20,713 nucleotides of DNA from a virus (IMGVR_UViG_2703718869_000003:1-20713); one strand, 5' to 3'. Positions 5,063-20,713 are shown, counted from the stretch's first letter. A program made the numbers and translations. Notes: generated by a model not told the origin, from the letters alone.

Positions 5063-5283
5063 GGTACTATTTCCACTGTGATAGTTAGCACAATAATAAT
5101 TTCGCCAGAAACTATCGCGCCCTATACAGTGATCTACCTAACCTATGGAGCTGCCTTCCTCTGGTAGTGCCCTTACGGGCACGGATGTTACAGATCTGCC
5201 CCCTTGCCCCCTTCTTAGTAAAATTTCAAGCCAAATAATTTCACATGAAATTATTTCACAAAAAATAATCACCTTGATGAGGT

Positions 5284-5595: not shown

Positions 5596-5798
5596 TTAAT
5601 CATCGCCTCTTACGAACGCAGGGAACGGTCGAACCTCTTCCGCCTCAACTCTGCCGTCATCAAAGGTTTTGACGTAAATTTCACGTCCGACAAGAAGCGC
5701 TTTACTGATCGCGCTCTGCGCCACACCAAAGTCCTTAGCGGCTTTCTTCTGACCGAACCTGTATACGTAATCAGCCAGGGTCTCTTTTTTCATCGCCA
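5596..5798 (-). CDS. cro: Cro repressor
   Basis: From the Met at 5798, [60 protein letters not shown] parallels lambda Cro (…[35 protein letters not shown]…AEEVKPFP). GAAGGAG ribosome-binding site 7 nt upstream. Divergent from cI. Confidence 0.9.
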
Positions 5799-5821
5799 TA
5801 ACTGACTCCTTCAAAATGCCC

Positions 5822-5894
5822 ATATCATTACGCACAGTTATTAAAATGTCAACACCGCAGATATTTCATTACATATAACCAAAGGTGATATGGT
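5822..5894. promoter_or_regulatory. oR-like operator/promoter region: three candidate operators, leftward pR for cro (-35 TTGACA on the minus strand at 5847-5852), rightward pRM for cI
   Basis: 75-bp divergent intergenic region. Sites at about 5822-5838 (ATATCATTACGCACAGT), 5848-5864 (TCAACACCGCAGATATT) and 5874-5890 (ATAACCAAAGGTGATAT) carry lambda-like half-sites (CACCGC / GGTGATA) at roughly 26-bp spacing. The cI ATG lies at the edge, consistent with a leaderless transcript. Confidence 0.55.
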
Positions 5895-6608
5895 ATGAAC
5901 ATGAAAAAGAAACCGTTAACCCCTGAGCAACTGGAAGACGCCAAGCGTCTGAAAAGTATTTTTAACGCTAAAAAGAAAGAGTTAGGCCTGTCGCAGGAAT
6001 CATTAGCCTATGAATTAGGTGTTACCCAAAGCGCTGTTAATCAGCTAATGGCTGGCATCAACGCCATAAATGCCAGCCACGCAGCACAGCTTGCTAAGAT
6101 ACTGAATGTAAAGGTCGGAGATTTCAGTCCCAGCCTGGCAAAATCTATTGCAGAAATGGCGCTCGCAATTGAAGAGCCATTAACTCGTGTCCCCGCTTAC
6201 GAATATCCGTTACTCTCCTGCGTACAAGCTGGCGCATTCTCAATGGATGATATTTCGTACACCGCAAAAGATGCGATTAAATGGATCTCCACCACCACAA
6301 AAGCCAGTGACAGGTCGTTCTGGCTGGAGGTCAAGGGGCATTCAATGACCGCACCGCAGGGTGGTAAACCCAGCTTCCCTGAAGGTATGCTGATACTCGT
6401 TGACCCTGAACGGGAAATCGAGGATGGCGATTTTTGCGTGGCCCGAATGAACGGCGATGAATTTACCTTCAAACGATTCATTCGTGAGAGCGGTAAAGCG
6501 TACCTGGAGCCGCTCAACCCACGATTCGACATGATTGAGTGTAACGAAAACTGCCAGTTTGTCGGAAAGGTCATCAAATCGCAGTGGAATGATGAGACTT
6601 TTGATTGA
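5895..6608 (+). CDS. cI: CI repressor (lambda cI-like; HTH N-domain plus S24 LexA-like autopeptidase C-domain)
   Basis: Starts [38 protein letters not shown]. Ala-Gly cleavage context VQAGAFS. C-domain [32 protein letters not shown]...[11 protein letters not shown] is close to lambda cI. Confidence 0.95.
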
Positions 6609-6702: not shown

Positions 6703-8172
6703 ATGCTTCAAAAGCTAGACGTCGCAGACAGCGTGCGTCGCGAGCTGTCTCCCCGTACCGCGCGTAAACACAAAGCTGAGTTCGGCCAGTTCATGACGCC
6801 TTCTGGCGTGGCCCGTTTTATGGCCTCCTTGTTTCCACCGAGCACAATGAAAACTTGCCGTCTACTGGACGCAGGCGCTGGTGTAGGCGCACTGTCTTGC
6901 GCCTTCCTCGACCGTTGGCTGGTTGGCGAGTTTGGCTTTGAGTCTGTCGAGGCAACAGCCTACGAAATAGACAAAAAGCTGTGTGGTCACCTTGCGAAGC
7001 ACTTAACCGGGTACAGGAGAGTGACGCCCCGCATCATCGAAGGGGATTATATTGAGCTGGCAACCGCCGAAGGTCTACAGGATCGAGGTTATACCCATGC
7101 AATACTTAATCCGCCTTACAAGAAGATCAATAGCCAGTCAGCCCACCGGCAGGCTCTTCGCACTGTCGGTATCGAGACGGTAAATCTGTATTCCGCCTTT
7201 GTTGCACTGGCTGTAGGTGAGGTTGCACCTGGCGGGCAGATAGTGGCCATAATCCCACGTAGTTTCTGCAACGGACCGTATTACCGTCCGTTCCGTAATT
7301 TCATACTTGAGCGGGCAGCAATCCGCCATATTCATTTGTTCGAATCACGTAGCAAAGCTTTCAGGGATGACGATGTGTTGCAGGAAAATATTATCATCCG
7401 CCTGGAGCGTGGAGGCCTTCAGGAGGCTGTTACAGTCACAACTTCGACCGATGATAGCTTTTTTGACCTGGTCACCTACGAACACCCATTTGACCAAATT
7501 GTGTACCCGGACGATTCGGAGCGGTTTATTCATGTGCCGACCACGCACGAGAAAAGCGCCATTGAGTTATCATCCGCCGTACAATGTTCGCTGGCTGATA
7601 TTGGCGTGAAGGTATCGACCGGACCGATAGTTGATTTCCGACTGAAAGCTCATTTGCGCAGCATGCCCGAAGAAGGAACTGTTCCCCTGATCTACCCGAG
7701 CCATTTGAGTATGAGTAGCACTGTCTGGCCTGTGGAAGGTTTGAAGAAACCCAACGCAATCATGCGCAACGACGAGACAGAAAAGTGGCTTTACCCGAAC
7801 GGTTTTTATTGTGTGGTGCGTCGTTTCTCGTCGAAGGAGGAAAAGCGCCGAGTGGTAGCAAGCGTCGTTGATCCTGCTACCTTCAGTGAGTATTCAGTGT
7901 TGGGATTTGAAAATCACATGAACGTGTTTCATGAGAACAAACATGGGTTACCCGAGGCGCTGGCCCGTGGCTTGGCCGTGTTCCTGAACACTACCGCAGT
8001 GGATAAGTATTTCCGTCGATTCAACGGGCATACACAGGTCAATGCAACCGACCTCAAGATGATTAAGTACCCAAGCCGTGACACTCTGATAGAGCTTGGC
8101 AAGTGGGCTATGCAACAAGAAACTCTCACGCAAGAACATATTGACGCTAAGCTAGGAGCTCTGACTGCATGA
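6703..8172 (+). CDS. N6-adenine DNA methyltransferase (NPPY class); putative M subunit of a PstI/BsuBI-like type II restriction-modification system
   Basis: FxTP motif (FGQFMTPSGVARFM), AdoMet-binding LLDAGAGVGAL, catalytic NPPY (HAILNPPYKK). 489 aa, about the size I recall for M.PstI/M.BsuBI. AAGAGG ribosome-binding site. Confidence 0.85.
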   Translation: MLQKLDVADSVRRELSPRTARKHKAEFGQFMTPSGVARFMASLFPPSTMKTCRLLDAGAGVGALSCAFLDRWLVGEFGFESVEATAYEIDKKLCGHLAKHLTGYRRVTPRIIEGDYIELATAEGLQDRGYTHAILNPPYKKINSQSAHRQALRTVGIETVNLYSAFVALAVGEVAPGGQIVAIIPRSFCNGPYYRPFRNFILERAAIRHIHLFESRSKAFRDDDVLQENIIIRLERGGLQEAVTVTTSTDDSFFDLVTYEHPFDQIVYPDDSERFIHVPTTHEKSAIELSSAVQCSLADIGVKVSTGPIVDFRLKAHLRSMPEEGTVPLIYPSHLSMSSTVWPVEGLKKPNAIMRNDETEKWLYPNGFYCVVRRFSSKEEKRRVVASVVDPATFSEYSVLGFENHMNVFHENKHGLPEALARGLAVFLNTTAVDKYFRRFNGHTQVNATDLKMIKYPSRDTLIELGKWAMQQETLTQEHIDAKLGALTA

Positions 8173-9122
8173 ACAACCAAAATGATTATATTGAGGCCGC
8201 TCAGCAAATTATAGCATCCTTAGGCCTGCCCAGAGCGCAGCAGAATGAGCGTTCTGCTTTGTGTTTGCTGGCACTCCTGAACCTCACACCGGGAAAAGCA
8301 TGGGCCAACGCGGAAAATCCGCTTGTGGGCATTACACCAATCATGAATTGGGTTCGGGAGCACTACGGCAAGGTCTACGCACCCAATACTCGTGAGACAT
8401 TCCGCCGCCAGTCTATGCATCAGTTCTGCGCTGCTGGAGTAGCCCTCTACAATCCGGACAAGCCCGATCGCCCAGTGAACAGCCCGAAGGCTGTTTATCA
8501 GATCGAACCTGCTGCTCTGTCCATGCTACGCACTTTCGGCAGCCCGGCATGGCACGATAGCCTTGCAACCTATTTAGCCGAGCGTGAAACGCTGGTTACC
8601 CGCTATGCTAAGGAGCGCGAACAGAATCGTATCCCTGTTGAAATTGCTGCGGGCCAGCAAATAACCCTCAGTCCCGGCGAGCACAGCGAACTTATCCGTG
8701 CCATAATAGAGGACTTCGCCCCACGTTTTGCTCCGGGTAGCGTGCTGGTCTATGCTGGCGACACTGGCGAAAAGTGGGGCTACTTCGACGCTCCACTGCT
8801 GGCCGGGCTAGGTGTTGATGTGGATTCACACGGTAAAATGCCAGATGTGGTGCTACATTTTACTGCGAAAAACTGGCTGCTACTGGTTGAGTCTGTCACC
8901 AGTCATGGACCGGTTGATGGGAAGCGGCATGCTGAGCTTGCCAGGCTGTTTGCCGGATCAACAGCCGGACTTGTCTATGTGACCGCTTTTCCAAATCGCT
9001 CCATCATGGGACGATATCTTGGTGAAATCGCATGGGAAACAGAGGTATGGGTGGCTGATGCACCTTCTCATCTTATTCACTTCAACGGAGTACGATTTCT
9101 TGGCCCCTACTCTACTGAATGA
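8169..9122 (+). CDS. Putative type II restriction endonuclease, BsuBI/PstI family (assignment by size, synteny and motif; not verified)
   Basis: 317 aa. Start overlaps the methyltransferase stop (ATGA). Contains a PD...E-like segment (GKMPDVVLHF...NWLLLVESVTSHG). Followed by an intrinsic terminator. Confidence 0.55.
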   Translation: MNNQNDYIEAAQQIIASLGLPRAQQNERSALCLLALLNLTPGKAWANAENPLVGITPIMNWVREHYGKVYAPNTRETFRRQSMHQFCAAGVALYNPDKPDRPVNSPKAVYQIEPAALSMLRTFGSPAWHDSLATYLAERETLVTRYAKEREQNRIPVEIAAGQQITLSPGEHSELIRAIIEDFAPRFAPGSVLVYAGDTGEKWGYFDAPLLAGLGVDVDSHGKMPDVVLHFTAKNWLLLVESVTSHGPVDGKRHAELARLFAGSTAGLVYVTAFPNRSIMGRYLGEIAWETEVWVADAPSHLIHFNGVRFLGPYSTE

Positions 9123-9142
9123 GTACAGGACCAGATAAATAG

Positions 9143-9169
9143 CCCGGCCCATGCGCCGGGTTTTTCTTT
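9143..9169 (+). terminator. Rho-independent terminator ending the cI/methyltransferase/endonuclease transcription unit
   Basis: Stem CCCGGC (9143-9148) / GCCGGG (9155-9160), 6-nt loop, then TTTTTCTTT. Confidence 0.65.
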
Positions 9170-9249
9170 GCATATCCCCTCCTGCTATCTGTCCCCTTCA
9201 AAAATAAATCACTTTAAAAATCAGTTAAGTAATATTTTCTTGCCCACAA

Positions 9250-9293
9250 TAACCACCAACGGTATTTACACAAAAATCACCGCAAGTTATATT
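9250..9293 (+). promoter_or_regulatory. pL-like promoter with overlapping oL-like operators
   Basis: -35 TTTACA (9265-9270), 17-bp spacer, -10 TATATT (9288-9293). The spacer contains AATCACCGCAAGTTAT, a lambda-operator-like half-site; an upstream ATAACCACCAACGGTAT is a second candidate. Confidence 0.5.
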
Positions 9294-9372
9294 TATTTCA
9301 AGCCAGAAACATCGCGCCCTTACACAGGGCTACATAAATCAGTCGTACGGCGCGACTTAACCCGCCGCAAAA

Positions 9373-9385
9373 TGCTCTTTAACAA
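9373..9385 (+). promoter_or_regulatory. boxA-like element (TGCTCTTTAACAA), identical to the E. coli rrn boxA core as I recall it
   Basis: Exact string about 80 nt downstream of the putative pL start; possible nutL-type or rrn-type antitermination site. Confidence 0.4.
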
Positions 9386-9689
9386 TCTGGAGCTTTACAG
9401 CGTCAATGACCTGTTTAGACCCCTACACGTAAACGTGCTGTATCATCGGGTGCGATCCGGTCGATGAGAGAGTATCCCCGCGCGAGAGCGAGAACGGCGT
9501 GAGAACGGGCAACACTGGCAGGAAGTTGGCGCTGACCAATACAGGGAAGGTTTTGGGGTGCAGGCAGCACCGCCAAAGCATTTCCGAGAAAGGATGGTAT
9601 TGACTGCGTGTGATGTCGGGGCTATATTTGGCGAACACCTCATAAAACGGGTGTCGGGATTAGGACCCCGCTGACAATCGAGGCGATAC

Positions 9690-9711
9690 AGACGCGCTAG
9701 CGTCTTTTTTT
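9690..9711 (+). terminator. Rho-independent terminator (tL-like) in the pL leader
   Basis: Stem AGACGC / GCGTCT with GCTA loop, followed by a run of 7 T. Confidence 0.7.
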
Positions 9712-9876
9712 GTATCGACATGCACGCACATCTTATCAATGGTGGGCTGTATGGGGCCGACTTCGGTCGGGCTGGTTCCCTTGATTGCCAGTAGTCCTAA
9801 CCCTGTACAGTCCACCGCCAGCGAGTTTAGGACCTCCGGCGGTGGTTATCAATCACCAATCAAGGAGGCTGCCACC

Positions 9877-10521
9877 ATGGCTACTATATCTCCCCTTTCT
9901 CGCCCATCCGTAACTATTGAAAACGGCAATGCCATCACTACGTCAATTGACATCGCAGAGTTCTTTGAGAAGCAGCATCACCATGTTGTTCAGAAAATAG
10001 AATCCCTTGAATGCTCTGAACAATTCTTAACCAGCAACTTTTCGCGGGTTAAATTCGAACACCGGGGTAATACCTATAACGCCTATCAAATCACCAAAAA
10101 CGGCTTCGTCTTCCTGGTGATGGGCTTCACTGGTAAAAAAGCCGCCGCTTTCAAAGAAGCCTACATCGCTGAATTCGATCGCATGGAAAAACAGCTATGG
10201 GAACAGAAACAACTGGCCCTGTCTTCTCCTGCGATGAATATCAATTTCCCTTTGTCGTGGTTTTCTGAGCATCACCCCTACGCCACGATGAATTATGTTG
10301 ATCGAAAAACATTGCAGCTTGATACCTCCGTCTTATTCGACATGCCAAGCCCTGCAATGCGCATATTTAATGAATTACGTCGCAACGGCTATAACGTTGA
10401 CGCCGCTGTCGCTGAATTTAACGCCTTCAAACATCTGACGGAAGAAATGCGCCGTACACTACAGGATATTTCAAGATTGTCAGATCAAAATGCCCGAAAA
10501 GGCTTCTCTGTAAGCCTCTAA
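9877..10521 (+). CDS. Rha-family phage regulatory protein / antirepressor-like, with a C-terminal domain shared with the next gene
   Basis: Start chosen at the ATG at 9877 (AAGGAGG 8 nt upstream) rather than the ORF-track start at 9739. N-terminal region ITTSIDIAEFFEKQHHHVVQKIE...YQITKNGFVFLVMGF resembles the Rha family from memory. Confidence 0.75.
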   Translation: MATISPLSRPSVTIENGNAITTSIDIAEFFEKQHHHVVQKIESLECSEQFLTSNFSRVKFEHRGNTYNAYQITKNGFVFLVMGFTGKKAAAFKEAYIAEFDRMEKQLWEQKQLALSSPAMNINFPLSWFSEHHPYATMNYVDRKTLQLDTSVLFDMPSPAMRIFNELRRNGYNVDAAVAEFNAFKHLTEEMRRTLQDISRLSDQNARKGFSVSL

Positions 10522-10559
10522 AGAACTAATAGTTTGACAAAGAACTAATAGTTTGACAA
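10522..10559 (+). repeat. Perfect 19-bp tandem direct repeat (AGAACTAATAGTTTGACAA x2), each copy with a TTGACA hexamer
   Basis: Seen directly, immediately after the Rha-like stop codon. Confidence 0.8.
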
Positions 10560-10608
10560 TGCCGCAGCGCTTATCGCATACTGACCGCACTACAACGTCA
10601 GCGGTCAA

Positions 10609-10637
10609 CCGCACCCGATAGCTTTGCGGCTTTTTTA
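10609..10637 (+). terminator. Candidate intrinsic terminator (stem CCGCA / TGCGG, then CTTTTTTAT)
   Basis: Seen directly about 50 bp downstream of the tandem repeat. The stem is short (5 bp) with an 11-nt loop. Confidence 0.45.
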
Positions 10638-10790
10638 TGCCTGTTCACAGGTATCGCCATATCAATGGCGGGTCGAGAGAGCCTAATACAACACCCTTTC
10701 GGGAAATACGCTCCGCCGTCTGACGCGGTAGTTGAAGCCCGCCACCCCACTAAGGTGGCAGTCAATACTAAAACGTCAGGAGTCATGATT

Positions 10791-11429
10791 ATGGCTAATC
10801 AACTCATCCCCGTATTCAACGGCACCATATCCAACGAAACAACTCTTTTAGTTAACGCTCGTGATCTACATTCTTTTCTTGGTGTGGGCAGAATGTTCGC
10901 GCACTGGGTTAAAGAGCGCATTGCTGAATATGGATTCGTTGAAAGCCAGGACTATATTTTGATTTGCCAAAATGGGCAAACCAAAGGTCGAGGAGGTAAT
11001 CGCCGTAGCAAGGACTACCACCTAACTCTCGACACAGCCAAAGAGCTGGCAATGGTTGAGCGCAACGAAAAAGGCCGCCAGATACGCCGCTACTTCATTG
11101 AGTGCGAGAAAAAGTTTCGCCAGAGTCTTTTACCTACACCAATGAACATCAACTACCCTCTCTCGTGGTTCTCAGATAACCATCCCTACGCCACGATGAA
11201 CTATGTTGATCGCAAGGTTATCAGCCTTGATGCTTCCGTGCTCTTCGATATGCCAAGCCCAACTATGCGCATCCTCAACGAGCTACACAGCAAGGGCTAT
11301 AACGTCGATGCAGCTGTCGCCGAATTTAACGCCTTCAAGCATCTGACGGAAGAAATGCGCCGTAAATTGCTGGATATTTCCCGCACATCGGAAAAGTCTT
11401 CCCGCTTTGGTTTCAACGTAAATCTTTAA
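10791..11429 (+). CDS. AntA/AntB-type antirepressor-like protein, with the same C-terminal domain as the Rha-like gene
   Basis: Start at 10791 (AGGAG 8 nt upstream). N-terminal LIPVFNGTISNETTLLVNARDLHSFLGV...QDYILICQNGQTKGRGGNRRSKDYHLTLDTAKELAMVERNEKGRQIRRYFIECEK resembles AntA-type antirepressors from memory. The C-terminal 95 aa is a paralogue of the Rha-like C-terminus. Confidence 0.75.
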   Translation: MANQLIPVFNGTISNETTLLVNARDLHSFLGVGRMFAHWVKERIAEYGFVESQDYILICQNGQTKGRGGNRRSKDYHLTLDTAKELAMVERNEKGRQIRRYFIECEKKFRQSLLPTPMNINYPLSWFSDNHPYATMNYVDRKVISLDASVLFDMPSPTMRILNELHSKGYNVDAAVAEFNAFKHLTEEMRRKLLDISRTSEKSSRFGFNVNL

Positions 11430-19473: not shown

Positions 19474-19683
19474 ATGGCTATTGCTGCAAGTTACACCATG
19501 CATCTCTATTGTGATTGCCTCCAGTGTACAGATGGCAAATATAAGTCGCCAGACTTCGGTGAGTATATAGGTACGTCATGGGCTGGCTGTGCAAAAGAGG
19601 CGCGCAAGGATGGCTGGCGAATAAGCAAAGACAAAACGCGTGCTTTTGCGCCCGGGCATAAAGTTTTGAGGATTAACAAATGA
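19474..19683 (+). CDS. Small Cys-containing hypothetical protein (69 aa)
   Basis: ATG at 19474 with AAGGAGAG upstream. Sequence MAIAASYTMHLYCDCLQCTDGKYKSPDFGEYIGTSWAGCAKEARKDGW.... Confidence 0.5.
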   Translation: MAIAASYTMHLYCDCLQCTDGKYKSPDFGEYIGTSWAGCAKEARKDGWRISKDKTRAFAPGHKVLRINK

Positions 19684-20713
19684 CCACTATTACCAAAGAG
19701 CGACTGCTGACAATCAAGCAGTGGCGCGAAACATACGGACCTGGTAGCAACGTTGTACTGCCAGCAGAAGAAGCGGAAGAACTGGCACGGATTGCTCTGG
19801 CATCGCTGGAAGCAAAACCAATAGGTGCATTTCACATTGCAGAACAGCAAGTTGACGGCACAAGTGACTACATCAAGGATGGGGAGTGGCCTATTGATAA
19901 TGGGACAATTGAAGTATACGCCGCCCCTCCAGCGCCAGTAGTACCGGAAGAAAAACCAATGCCTAACCCTCTTGGCATGTACGCGGTTGATGCTGTTGCT
20001 GCTATTGCAGAGGTGAGAGGCTGGAACGCCTGCCGCGCCGCCATGCTTCAGTCCGGAAACTTTCGGGAAAACAATAATTCGTCAACCAATAATTTTCGGG
20101 AAATCGCGGAAACGTCAACCAACTATCCGATAATTCCTAGTGAGGTGTTGTCCGCAATCCTGAAGGTTGCCAAGATTCGTGCCGATTTCGATGATTTTGA
20201 CGGTGACAGGCGAGGTATCGGTGATTGTCTGGATGAGGCTGAGCAAGAGCTTATCGTTACCATTAACAAATATGCCAGTCAGTTGGCAGCAGAACCGATA
20301 GCGACTAATGACGTTCGAGAGCAAACAGCCGTTCCGCCAGTTCCTGTAATACAGGCTGATGTCGCGCAGGCAATTGAAAAACTCAAACGGAAATTAGTGG
20401 AATGCAATCGCTATAACTACTGCGCAGATGCAGTTAAGGGCGTTGAGTATGCCTGCCACGCTGCCATGCTTCAGGGTAGCCAACCTGTAAGCCAAACTTA
20501 CAAGTTTCCAGTTAATACACCTTGCCAGGATGCGCCAGCCCATATCTGGCTGCAAACAGCTGGAGTATGGCCAGAAGATGGCGAGTTAAGCGAATTAACG
20601 TGGTGCAGCCACAATCAGCACCATGATGACACGCTATATGTTCGAGCTGACTTGGTAAATGGCAATTCTCCGGTAACTCCGGATGGTTGGATAAGCTGTA
20701 GTGAGCGAATGCC
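19680..20713 (+). CDS. Long hypothetical protein, 3'-truncated by the window end (at least 344 codons open)
   Basis: Absent from the ORF track because no stop occurs before the window end. I translated it codon by codon from ATG 19680 (ATGA overlap with the previous stop) and found no stop through 20713. Contains internal repeats. Confidence 0.65.
   Translation, partial: MTTITKERLLTIKQWRETYGPGSNVVLPAEEAEELARIALASLEAKPIGAFHIAEQQVDGTSDYIKDGEWPIDNGTIEVYAAPPAPVVPEEKPMPNPLGMYAVDAVAAIAEVRGWNACRAAMLQSGNFRENNNSSTNNFREIAETSTNYPIIPSEVLSAILKVAKIRADFDDFDGDRRGIGDCLDEAEQELIVTINKYASQLAAEPIATNDVREQTAVPPVPVIQADVAQAIEKLKRKLVECNRYNYCADAVKGVEYACHAAMLQGSQPVSQTYKFPVNTPCQDAPAHIWLQTAGVWPEDGELSELTWCSHNQHHDDTLYVRADLVNGNSPVTPDGWISCSERM

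Follow-up and report, generated by a model that had tools for sequence, protein, structure and literature searches.

A probable P1 immI-like control cassette, headed by a candidate target-mimic leader, in front of the antirepressor gene antA of a lambdoid prophage

Antirepressors can switch a prophage on. The immI region of phages P1 and P7, which is said to have been worked out by Citron and Schuster around 1990, reportedly encodes the c4 antisense RNA together with two target copies, a1b1 upstream and a2b2 downstream of it. In P1, RNase P cuts the c4 RNA out of its primary transcript. For P1 c4 as for IsrK of Gifsy-1, a C4-type RNA cut from the primary transcript blocks the ribosome-binding site (RBS) of the antirepressor gene, and the upstream copy of the target competes for it. 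Here we analyzed a viral DNA stretch of 20,713 nucleotides (IMGVR_UViG_2703718869_000003:1-20713; hereafter the window, to which coordinates refer unless another genome is named) and, within it, the interval 10522-10637 between two antirepressor-like genes, identified by Pfam as rha (Phage_pRha) and antA (AntA). Probably, a second cassette for antirepressor control, self-contained and of the P1 immI (c4) kind, begins with this interval and would keep antA silent; we read the interval as the promoter and leader of that cassette. The concept is known already from P1 immI and IsrK. The class of leader, its association with RNAs of the sRNA-Xcc1 type and a helix between promoter spacer and terminator appear to be new, and to our knowledge such a helix has not been described for P1.

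The C4 and c4-a1b1 motifs were listed by Weinberg et al. 2010 (PMC2864571). For Gifsy-1, Hershko-Shalev et al. 2016 (PMC4825925) reported that the IsrK terminator is read through into orf45-anrP, that an RNA of ~80 nt processed from the read-through transcript is complementary to IsrK, and that IsrK, which exists as a short RNA, activates translation of the anrP antirepressor in trans. In the same prophage, the Rfam model RF03163 ('a1, b1 targets of C4 antisense RNA') coincides with IsrK right in front of C4, and so it does in four other loci (L003, L053, L063 and L082). The small RNA (sRNA) sRNA-Xcc1 was described from a Xanthomonas integron (Chen et al. 2011) and, as far as it is quoted in PMC7313666, is a trans-acting sRNA borne by integrons, transposons and plasmids, with no target logic in the quoted part. 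A paper on APSE phages noted the co-occurrence of IsrK and c4 as well as sRNA-Xcc1 upstream of an ORF6N protein, without a mechanism, and the paper of Tree et al. 2014 on prophage sRNAs of enterohemorrhagic Escherichia coli makes no mention of antirepressor, IsrK, Xcc1 or C4.

The candidate antisense RNA of the second cassette lies between the interval and antA (Table 1) and, like the leader copy of its target and the isrK-C4 module before rha, had been overlooked in the preliminary description of this DNA. In a sensitive scan of 10400-10850, the sRNA-Xcc1 model of Rfam (RF02221) matched it over the full model length with an E value of 1.1e-8; C4 (RF01695) was not reported at 10667-10751, where Xcc1 was the only match. 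At the same position, 11 related modules in 10 related loci carry sRNA-Xcc1 matches above the gathering score (64-79 bits). Rfam places sRNA-Xcc1 outside the C4 clan. The overall shape of the RNA is that of C4: a long closing stem encloses two internal hairpins, and the 3' tail reads CCACCC. Xcc1 or C4 RNAs were also found upstream of AntA-family genes in Yersinia, Pasteurellaceae, Marinomonas and other taxa. A hairpin CCACC-CCACUAA-GGUGG (10742-10758, + strand) directly follows the C4-like RNA and re-uses the 3' strand of its closing stem; comparable hairpins occur after C4 at 9811-9847 and after RNAs of other types, and this may be an alternative structure tied to processing or to exposure of a2.

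The translation-initiation region of antA reads ACUAAAACGUCAG-GAG (10767-10782). At the level of sequence, the loop CUGACG of the C4-like RNA is complementary to CGUCAG (10774-10779), which overlaps the Shine-Dalgarno (SD) sequence CAGGAG. We found that the leader sequence ACUACAACGUCAG equals this RBS site at 12 of 13 positions, and that both copies are complementary to 10720-10732 of the RNA, that is, to the loop CUGACG followed by GG-UAGU. Calculated duplex energies were -23.1 kcal/mol for leader and C4-like RNA vs -14.5 kcal/mol for RBS and C4-like RNA, the leader duplex being the stronger because it additionally includes pairs between the leader GCGG and the 5' stem of the hairpin in the RNA. 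The leader site, the RNA loop and the RBS site vary jointly over at least 11 specificity types; examples of site and loop are given in Table 1. The shorter a site covaries too; for example, type B has GCTGAACACA both in the leader and in the downstream region, which pairs with GUGUUCA in the RNA. Duplexes of each C4-like RNA with its own RBS and its own leader were far stronger than non-cognate ones, and none of 20,000 permutations, including permutations within leader types, did better than the cognate pairing.

In the function that defines c4-a1b1, a sense-strand copy of the targets placed upstream of the antisense RNA, the leader agrees with that element, and we regard it as the likely functional counterpart of a1b1 and IsrK outside those sequence families. 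It gave no match to c4-a1b1 (RF03163), IsrK (RF01394) or IsrJ (RF01393) at E<=10 in 10400-10850. An Rfam scan of 12 loci split cleanly: C4 cassettes had IsrK/c4-a1b1 leaders, and all Xcc1 cassettes (leader types A, B and C) had leaders without an Rfam match at E<=0.1. Other known RNAs were considered and rejected. IsrJ, which lies downstream of anrP in Gifsy-1, is unrelated in sequence and gave no covariance-model match (Gifsy-1 IsrJ itself scored 100 bits, at L087 33406-33480); blastn of the microRNA-size RNA 24B_1 of Phi24B, located between lom and vb_24B_43, against the region of the window returned noise; and no tRNA or tmRNA was found. In a separate observation on a Glaesserella parasuis locus (L097, 967-1134), the Rfam family AaHKsRNA82 ('Aggregatibacter sRNA 82') was found immediately before a C4 RNA and an AntA gene and bears both C4 target copies, ATTGCAGT and CTAATTAGAG (TTAATTAGAG at the RBS of the gene), so that it looks like a further family of a1b1 leaders.

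The preliminary description had proposed a promoter for the downstream AntA-like gene, and conservation supports this proposal. The only call of a promoter scan in the interval was the second TTGACA with CATACT (10/12 matches). A -35 box (TTGACA/T/G or TTTACA) and a -10 hexamer (A2, T6) at a spacing of 16-18 bp are present in all 20 distinct variants, and a recombinant locus (L066) with unrelated DNA upstream of its -10 box has nevertheless TTGACT-18-GATACT, homology resuming at ATACTGACCGC. The second TTGACA and CATACT are thus very probably a real promoter for the antA cassette. Its start is predicted near A10589 by analogy with IsrK, the Rfam model of which starts 7 nt past its -10 box, and the RNA would begin with ACUACAACGUCAG-CGGUC. 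A small open reading frame (ORF) in the leader (ATG 10559, 20 codons) was rejected as a gene: it is without an SD sequence, and its ATG is missing in homologues.

We propose that this sigma-70 promoter would be constitutive in the lysogen and would yield an RNA with the a1b1 copy, a weak hairpin and U-tract, the C4-like RNA and antA, in this order. The C4-like RNA supplied in this way would pair through its loop with the RBS site and block translation of antA. Since the C4-like RNA pairs better with the leader copy than with the RBS, the leader would serve as a decoy or anti-antisense element like IsrK in Gifsy-1, setting a threshold for antA expression, either in cis before processing or in trans if the leader is terminated. 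The leader may also sense the C4-like RNA, abundance of which would favor termination: pairing with the nascent leader could free CCGCA for the terminator hairpin, a negative feedback conceivable in types A and B only.

A short sRNA gene was another suggestion of the preliminary description, and a stop at the T-run would indeed give an RNA of ~49 nt (10589-10636). Were this free RNA the main product, it would act in trans in the manner of IsrK, on its own long transcript or on host targets. The order of promoter, short RNA and U-tract parallels IsrK at 9635-9710, IsrK is known as a short RNA that works in trans (PMC4825925), and the leader has a strong predicted binding site for the C4-like RNA. 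However, the hairpin by the U-tract is weak, or unformed in the minimum free energy (MFE) structure of the RNA from the cassette's own promoter, whereas IsrK ends in a canonical terminator recognized by the scan, with a GC-rich 6-bp stem and a 4-nt loop. Substantial read-through is also required, because the C4-like RNA and antA have no other conserved promoter. A free sRNA as the main product appears unlikely to us, although it overlaps with the cassette reading and does not exclude it; leader is a better label than stand-alone sRNA gene, as the hairpin by itself is a poor terminator.

The nearby terminator of the preliminary description exists as a hairpin with a T-run, but the local hairpin is weak: it has 5 bp and an 11-nt loop, reaches -5.9 kcal/mol, is no better than shuffled sequences and was not called by the terminator scan. 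In RNA begun at +1, the MFE structure pairs GCGG (10601-10604) with CCGC (10609-10612) and thereby occupies the 5' arm of the hairpin. RNA 10555-10640, which includes the promoter spacer, reached -29.7 kcal/mol (z -3.6), with a 14-bp spacer helix ending right at the U-tract; across variants, MFE folding set the spacer helix beside the U-tract only with the spacer included, in 17 of 20. The spacer:terminator duplexes of type A have energies of -19 to -24 kcal/mol vs about -8 for shuffled sequences (0/500 shuffles as good), and those of types B and C exceed most shuffles. Spacers paired better with terminators of their own type than with most terminators of other types; type B spacers with type C terminators, which have a common loop sequence, were the exception. 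In an unfitted MAFFT alignment, the helix derived from the window paired 74.5% of cells, compared with 31-41% for controls in which it was slid; at four pairs both partners change, and none of 500 shuffles attained the score. Compensatory changes were seen in L090, L091 and L015 (Table 1). Several pairs of the helix are G-U and would turn into A-C mismatches in RNA of the opposite strand; we therefore assign the helix to the + strand RNA. RNAalifold on the mixed-type alignment recovered the local weak hairpin alone; it missed the spacer helix because the helix register differs between types, and explicit pair counts and duplex tests were used instead.

We infer from these folds that the terminator would be strong only for transcripts arriving from upstream. 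Transcripts of the isrK-C4-rha operon or of other neighbors would form the 14-bp helix beside the U-tract and terminate, and those from the cassette's own promoter, which are without the spacer strand, would read through, a leakiness needed to make the C4-like RNA. It might be argued that the element is nothing else than the intrinsic terminator of the isrK-C4-rha operon and that the promoter match and the resemblance of leader and RBS are incidental: the stable helix stands directly before U6 when the spacer is included, and the element sits right behind the rha stop codon. This explanation is highly unlikely, however, because the element also occurs without a preceding co-directional phage gene (for example, at prophage ends by ynfF or ymdF), the promoter geometry is conserved even in L066, and the leader site covaries with the RNA loop and the RBS, which is unexpected of a plain terminator.

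Several observations weigh against the cassette as a promoter-driven, C4-controlled and conditionally terminated unit. CATACT fits the -10 consensus at just 4/6 positions. The sRNA-Xcc1 match in the window, at 52.7 bits, is 0.3 bits under the Rfam gathering score of 53. The b' pairing of the window allele is short, with a 6-bp core and 4 further bp. L066 and L071 are without the spacer helix, which is weak in L003 and in the O104:H4 Shiga toxin 2a (Stx2a) phage P13374 and is thus not indispensable. The idea of GCGG/CCGC as an antiterminator fails for type C leaders.

The tandem repeat that prompted this study was found as reported in the preliminary description, as were the TTGACA-18-CATACT arrangement and the hairpin with its T-run, and has no demonstrated importance. 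Its two perfect copies stand back to back directly after the rha stop codon (Tandem Repeats Finder: period 19, 2.1 copies, 100% match) and are followed by TGCCGCAGCGCTTATCG, CATACT, GACCGCACTACAACGTCAGCGGTCAA, CCGCA-CCCGATAGCTT-TGCGG (10609-10629), C and TTTTTT. In the preliminary description the repeat was read as a possible operator, and regulation by CI, Cro, Rha or another protein could in principle reach the antA promoter through sites that overlap or adjoin the -35 box. Two features agree with this: each unit contains a perfect 11-bp palindrome, AACTAATAGTT, which abuts TTGACA, and the repeat is far beyond chance, since a 19-mer search with up to 3 mismatches found only these two copies in the window and 0/100 shuffles had two copies. 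On the other hand, 5-bp-arm palindromes are expected ~20 times in 20 kb by chance, a centre-to-centre distance of 19 bp is out of helical phase, and neither a relative of AACTAATAGTT nor a lambda-type operator pattern was found elsewhere in the window, the cI/cro intergenic region included. The second copy is absent from all homologues, each of which has one TTGACA, including 80 IMG/VR loci retrieved via the AntA protein; the palindrome is not kept in relatives; and the exact 19-mer has no match in 2.9 million IMG/VR contigs. A degenerate pattern, AGAACNNNNNGTTTGACAA, gave just chance single matches in unrelated IMG/VR contigs and was uninformative. The duplicated junction occurs in 6 of 5,426 complete E. 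coli genomes (E2863, E2855, 2013C-3250 and three O111:H8 strains), which are 100% identical over the 171-nt query. P13374, a close relative with the same methylase-endonuclease-IsrK-C4-rha context, has a single divergent, non-palindromic copy, AGAACAGATCGTTTGACAA, after the rha stop and then a different leader type; strain ERL04-3476 is similar. Lacking conservation in relatives and any counterpart in the window, the repeat does not in our view form an operator array; a role of the 19-bp units as operators is very unlikely, though a newly gained function is conceivable.

Homology to related modules (>100 phage and ~375-480 E. coli loci) starts at ~10552, at or a few bases before the second TTGACA. 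A type-A module at a prophage end reads ...CTCATAGTTTGACAAATCC, and the 19-mer seems to join the 3' flank of rha (AGAAC) to what is natively the upstream end of a type-A module (TAATAGTTTGACAA), the composite having then been duplicated. The tandem repeat would accordingly be a recent, lineage-specific and probably neutral duplication of the -35 junction in one E. coli prophage lineage. A different, variable tandem repeat of GGAAGAAAAG was observed just upstream of type-A cassettes at prophage ends near ynfF (L002 2455-2485; L059).

Table 1. Coordinates and sequences of the features of the antA cassette and its surroundings in the window, and helix strands and site/loop pairs of related loci
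Feature	Coordinates	Strand	Details
rha (Phage_pRha)	9877-10521	+	Pfam; stop TAA 10519-10521
Upstream sister module	9600-10521	+	Promoter 9600-9628, IsrK 9635-9710, C4 9735-9822, rha 9877-10521 (Rfam, promoter/terminator scan, Pfam)
Repeat unit 1, AGAACTAATAGTTTGACAA	10522-10540	+	Extra copy; TTGACA 10534-10539 without -10 partner
Repeat unit 2, AGAACTAATAGTTTGACAA	10541-10559	+	Bears the putative functional -35 box TTGACA 10553-10558
Predicted sigma-70-type promoter	10553-10582	+	-35 TTGACA 10553-10558, 18-bp spacer, -10 CATACT 10577-10582
Long-range helix, 5' strand	10561-10576	+	Within promoter spacer; predicted to pair with 10616-10630; only in transcripts from upstream
Putative leader target mimic (a1b1)	10589-10606	+	ACUACAACGUCAG 10589-10601, then GCGG(UC); complementary to C4-like RNA 10714-10733
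Mini-hairpin GCGG/CCGC	10601-10612	+	MFE structures; putative role
Weak hairpin and U6	10609-10636	+	CCGCA 10609-10613/UGCGG 10625-10629, U6 10631-10636; loop and 3' arm 10616-10630 = 3' strand of long-range helix
sRNA-Xcc1-type (C4-like) antisense RNA, candidate	10667-10751	+	Rfam RF02221; b' loop CUGACG 10720-10725, a' UAGU 10729-10732; closing stem, 3' CCACCCC tail
a2b2 target ACUAAAACGUCAG	10767-10779 (element to 10782)	+	Overlaps antA Shine-Dalgarno CAGGAG 10777-10782
antA, AntA/AntB-family antirepressor gene (regulated gene)	10791-11429	+	Pfam AntA E 4.9e-28; same start in PGAP (Prokaryotic Genome Annotation Pipeline) annotation of E. coli E2863
Helix strands, L090			CCGCAAAGcCUAUCG with CGAUAGCUUUGCGG
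Helix strands, L091			CCGCAAAAGCUGUCG with CGACAGCAUUUGCGG; A-U pair -> G-C
Helix strands, L026			CCGCAU..ACGGG with CCCGU..AUGCGG
Helix strands, L015			UCCAAUACUGAC with GUCAGUGUUGGA; 12/12 paired
Site/loop, window			ACGTCAG/CUGACG
Site/loop, L005			CTTCAAAG/CUUUGAAG
Site/loop, L014			CTTACAAG/CUUGUAAG
Site/loop, L090			CTTAAAGG/CCUUUAAG
Site/loop, L012			TGCAAAG/CUUUGCA
Site/loop, L004			CAGCAAG/CUUGCUG
Site/loop, L027			TCGAAAG/CUUUCGA
Site/loop, L003, P13374, L091			CAAGTAG/CUACUUG
Site/loop, L071			TCAGTGAG/CUCACUGA
Site/loop, L080			TACAAG/CUUGUA

The starts of rha (ATG 9877) and antA (ATG 10791) are supported by SD sequences. Directly before rha, Rfam at gathering thresholds identified IsrK (64.2 bits) and C4 (78.9 bits), and transcripts of isrK-C4-rha are predicted to run into 10522-10637. 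The window therefore appears to hold two tandem cassettes with a shared grammar of promoter, short U-tract leader, C4-type RNA and antirepressor gene. In the upstream cassette, the a sites are a1 AUUAGGAC in an IsrK loop, a' GUCCUAA and a2 UUUAGGAC, and the b sites are b1 CAAUCGAGG, b' CCCUUGAUUG and b2 CAAUCAAGGAGG at the rha SD sequence. With these sites visible in 9635-9822, IsrK is readable as an a1b1 decoy of C4, a link drawn neither by the 2016 IsrK paper (PMC4825925) nor by a 2025 review, which treated IsrK and c4 as unrelated items. Both C4-type RNAs have a conserved AUGG in their 5' stem, from which reading frames continue in frame into rha and antA (ORFs 9739-10521 and 10665-11429); the Rha coding sequence annotated by PGAP in E2863 begins within the C4 RNA. 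A similar question arises for orf45 in Gifsy-1. The Rha-family and AntA-family proteins have a common C-terminal segment, FDMPSP.M...FKHLTEEM (10400-10521 vs 11300-11429), and the same rha 3' end is joined to ORF6N-domain and Ant proteins in other genomes, which suggests that this C-terminal domain is mobile among antirepressors.

The cassettes are set among immunity and early genes of the lambdoid kind: Cro is encoded at 5596-5835 (-) and a CI-like helix-turn-helix/S24 repressor at 5895-6608 (+), and RecT, a YqaJ-type exonuclease and other genes follow downstream of antA. Several further observations were made in this region and beyond. An Eco57I-type methylase and a BsuBI/PstI-type endonuclease (6703-9122, +) lie directly downstream of the CI-like repressor gene and co-directional with it, with a terminator-like hairpin after the pair at ~9141-9168; this restriction-modification system is probably expressed in the lysogen. 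Two short tandem repeats occur downstream of cro, AAATAATTTCACAAA x2.5 at 5233-5269 and TGCCCCCT x2.1 at 5197-5213. A full-length sok antitoxin RNA at 361-535 (-; Rfam, 118 bits) implies that a toxin-antitoxin locus of the hok/sok type is situated close to the Q/nin end of the prophage. E. coli E2863 (L001) is identical to the window across the interval, and has ~1 kb of additional DNA after the endonuclease gene and before IsrK (8869-9719 in E2863; a Panacea-domain protein and a hypothetical protein) which the window is without. A third cassette in E2863 (20280-20429; genes 20529-21695) lies past the end of the window, in which 19500-20713 gave no Rfam match. Its type-A-like leader is 79% identical to 10552-10696 and precedes a truncated antA and a complete Ant gene; TOE17 has the same truncated and complete pair.

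The host phages are Shiga-toxin-type lambdoid phages of pathogenic E. coli, in which induction governs toxin release and phage spread. Our results suggest that many such phages guard antA, ORF6N and KilAC antirepressor genes by a P1-like RNA switch. They would assign a likely function to the sRNA-Xcc1 family, and tie IsrK and c4-a1b1 to a wider set of leader RNAs, and they show specificity alleles to be exchanged between phages. The conditional terminator, if confirmed, would offer a compact insulation of a mobile cassette from the transcription of its neighbors. Taking these parts together, we advance, tentatively and with somewhat less than even confidence, the broader view that antirepressor regulators of the c4 type have a second lineage in the sRNA-Xcc1 family, with its own, so far unannotated target-mimic leaders and at least 10 interchangeable immunity specificities in Stx and other lambdoid prophages, combined with an origin-dependent terminator that would insulate a dangerous gene from read-through.

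Compared with other described systems, the C4-like RNA is like sRNA-Xcc1 in that the model fits end to end, and unlike the described sRNA-Xcc1 in being located in phage antirepressor cassettes with cis-encoded target copies. Antisense-RNA-mediated transcription attenuation is known in pT181 and pIP501, and similarly a small RNA on the nascent leader could switch here between antiterminator (GCGG/CCGC) and terminator hairpin; unlike in those plasmids, the helices are of 4-5 bp, the alternative pairing is absent in type C leaders, and the switch is purely conjectural. P22 immI, to which the preliminary description had likened the interval, is comparable in that the lysogen keeps expression of its antirepressor low, in part by means of RNA. 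In P22, however, sar is transcribed from the opposite strand and the protein repressors Mnt and Arc have defined operators, and neither counterpart was found here. A sar-like antisense RNA over the antA start region would draw on the general analogy of antirepressor genes under RNA control, but the scan of 10522-10950 found no promoter-like site on the minus strand, Rfam matches on that strand in 10400-10850 were limited to noise at E 6.2, and it is the + strand that carries the conserved structured RNA together with its two target copies. Such a device is extremely improbable, and the layout is that of P1/P7 immI, with a C4-like RNA that would be co-transcribed on the sense strand.

The Gifsy-1 region IsrK-orf45(STnc1160)-anrP and the antA cassette have in common a short U-tract leader placed before a C4-type RNA with its antirepressor gene, complementarity of that leader to the RNA of ~80 nt that follows it, and production of the mRNA by read-through of the leader terminator, which for the window is our proposal. 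The leader differs from IsrK (RF01394) in having no sequence or covariance-model similarity to it, in length (~49 nt vs 77 nt), in being without the two 5' hairpins, and in a terminator that is weak unless upstream RNA is present; the window has a true IsrK-C4-rha module 0.9 kb farther upstream. With regard to P1/P7 immI, the differences are that the RNA belongs to the sRNA-Xcc1 sequence class and not to C4, with a leader lacking any c4-a1b1 match; that the a and b sites are adjacent, 13 nt in total, at the predicted 5' end of the leader; that no icd-like ORF lies between RNA and antirepressor gene; and that the setting is a lambdoid prophage with CI/Cro and without a P1 C1 operator. In other respects the organization is that of P1/P7: a promoter, an upstream target copy and a structured RNA of ~85 nt are followed by targets at the RBS of the regulated gene, all on one strand and predicted to be co-transcribed, and the regulated gene encodes an antirepressor. 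Two internal hairpins, a closing stem and the 3' CCACC tail mark the RNA in P1/P7 and here alike, the acceptor-like closing stem and the CCACCCC tail of the window being read from sequence. As in P1/P7, specificity appears to reside in short loop sequences that differ between phages, the basis of heteroimmunity.

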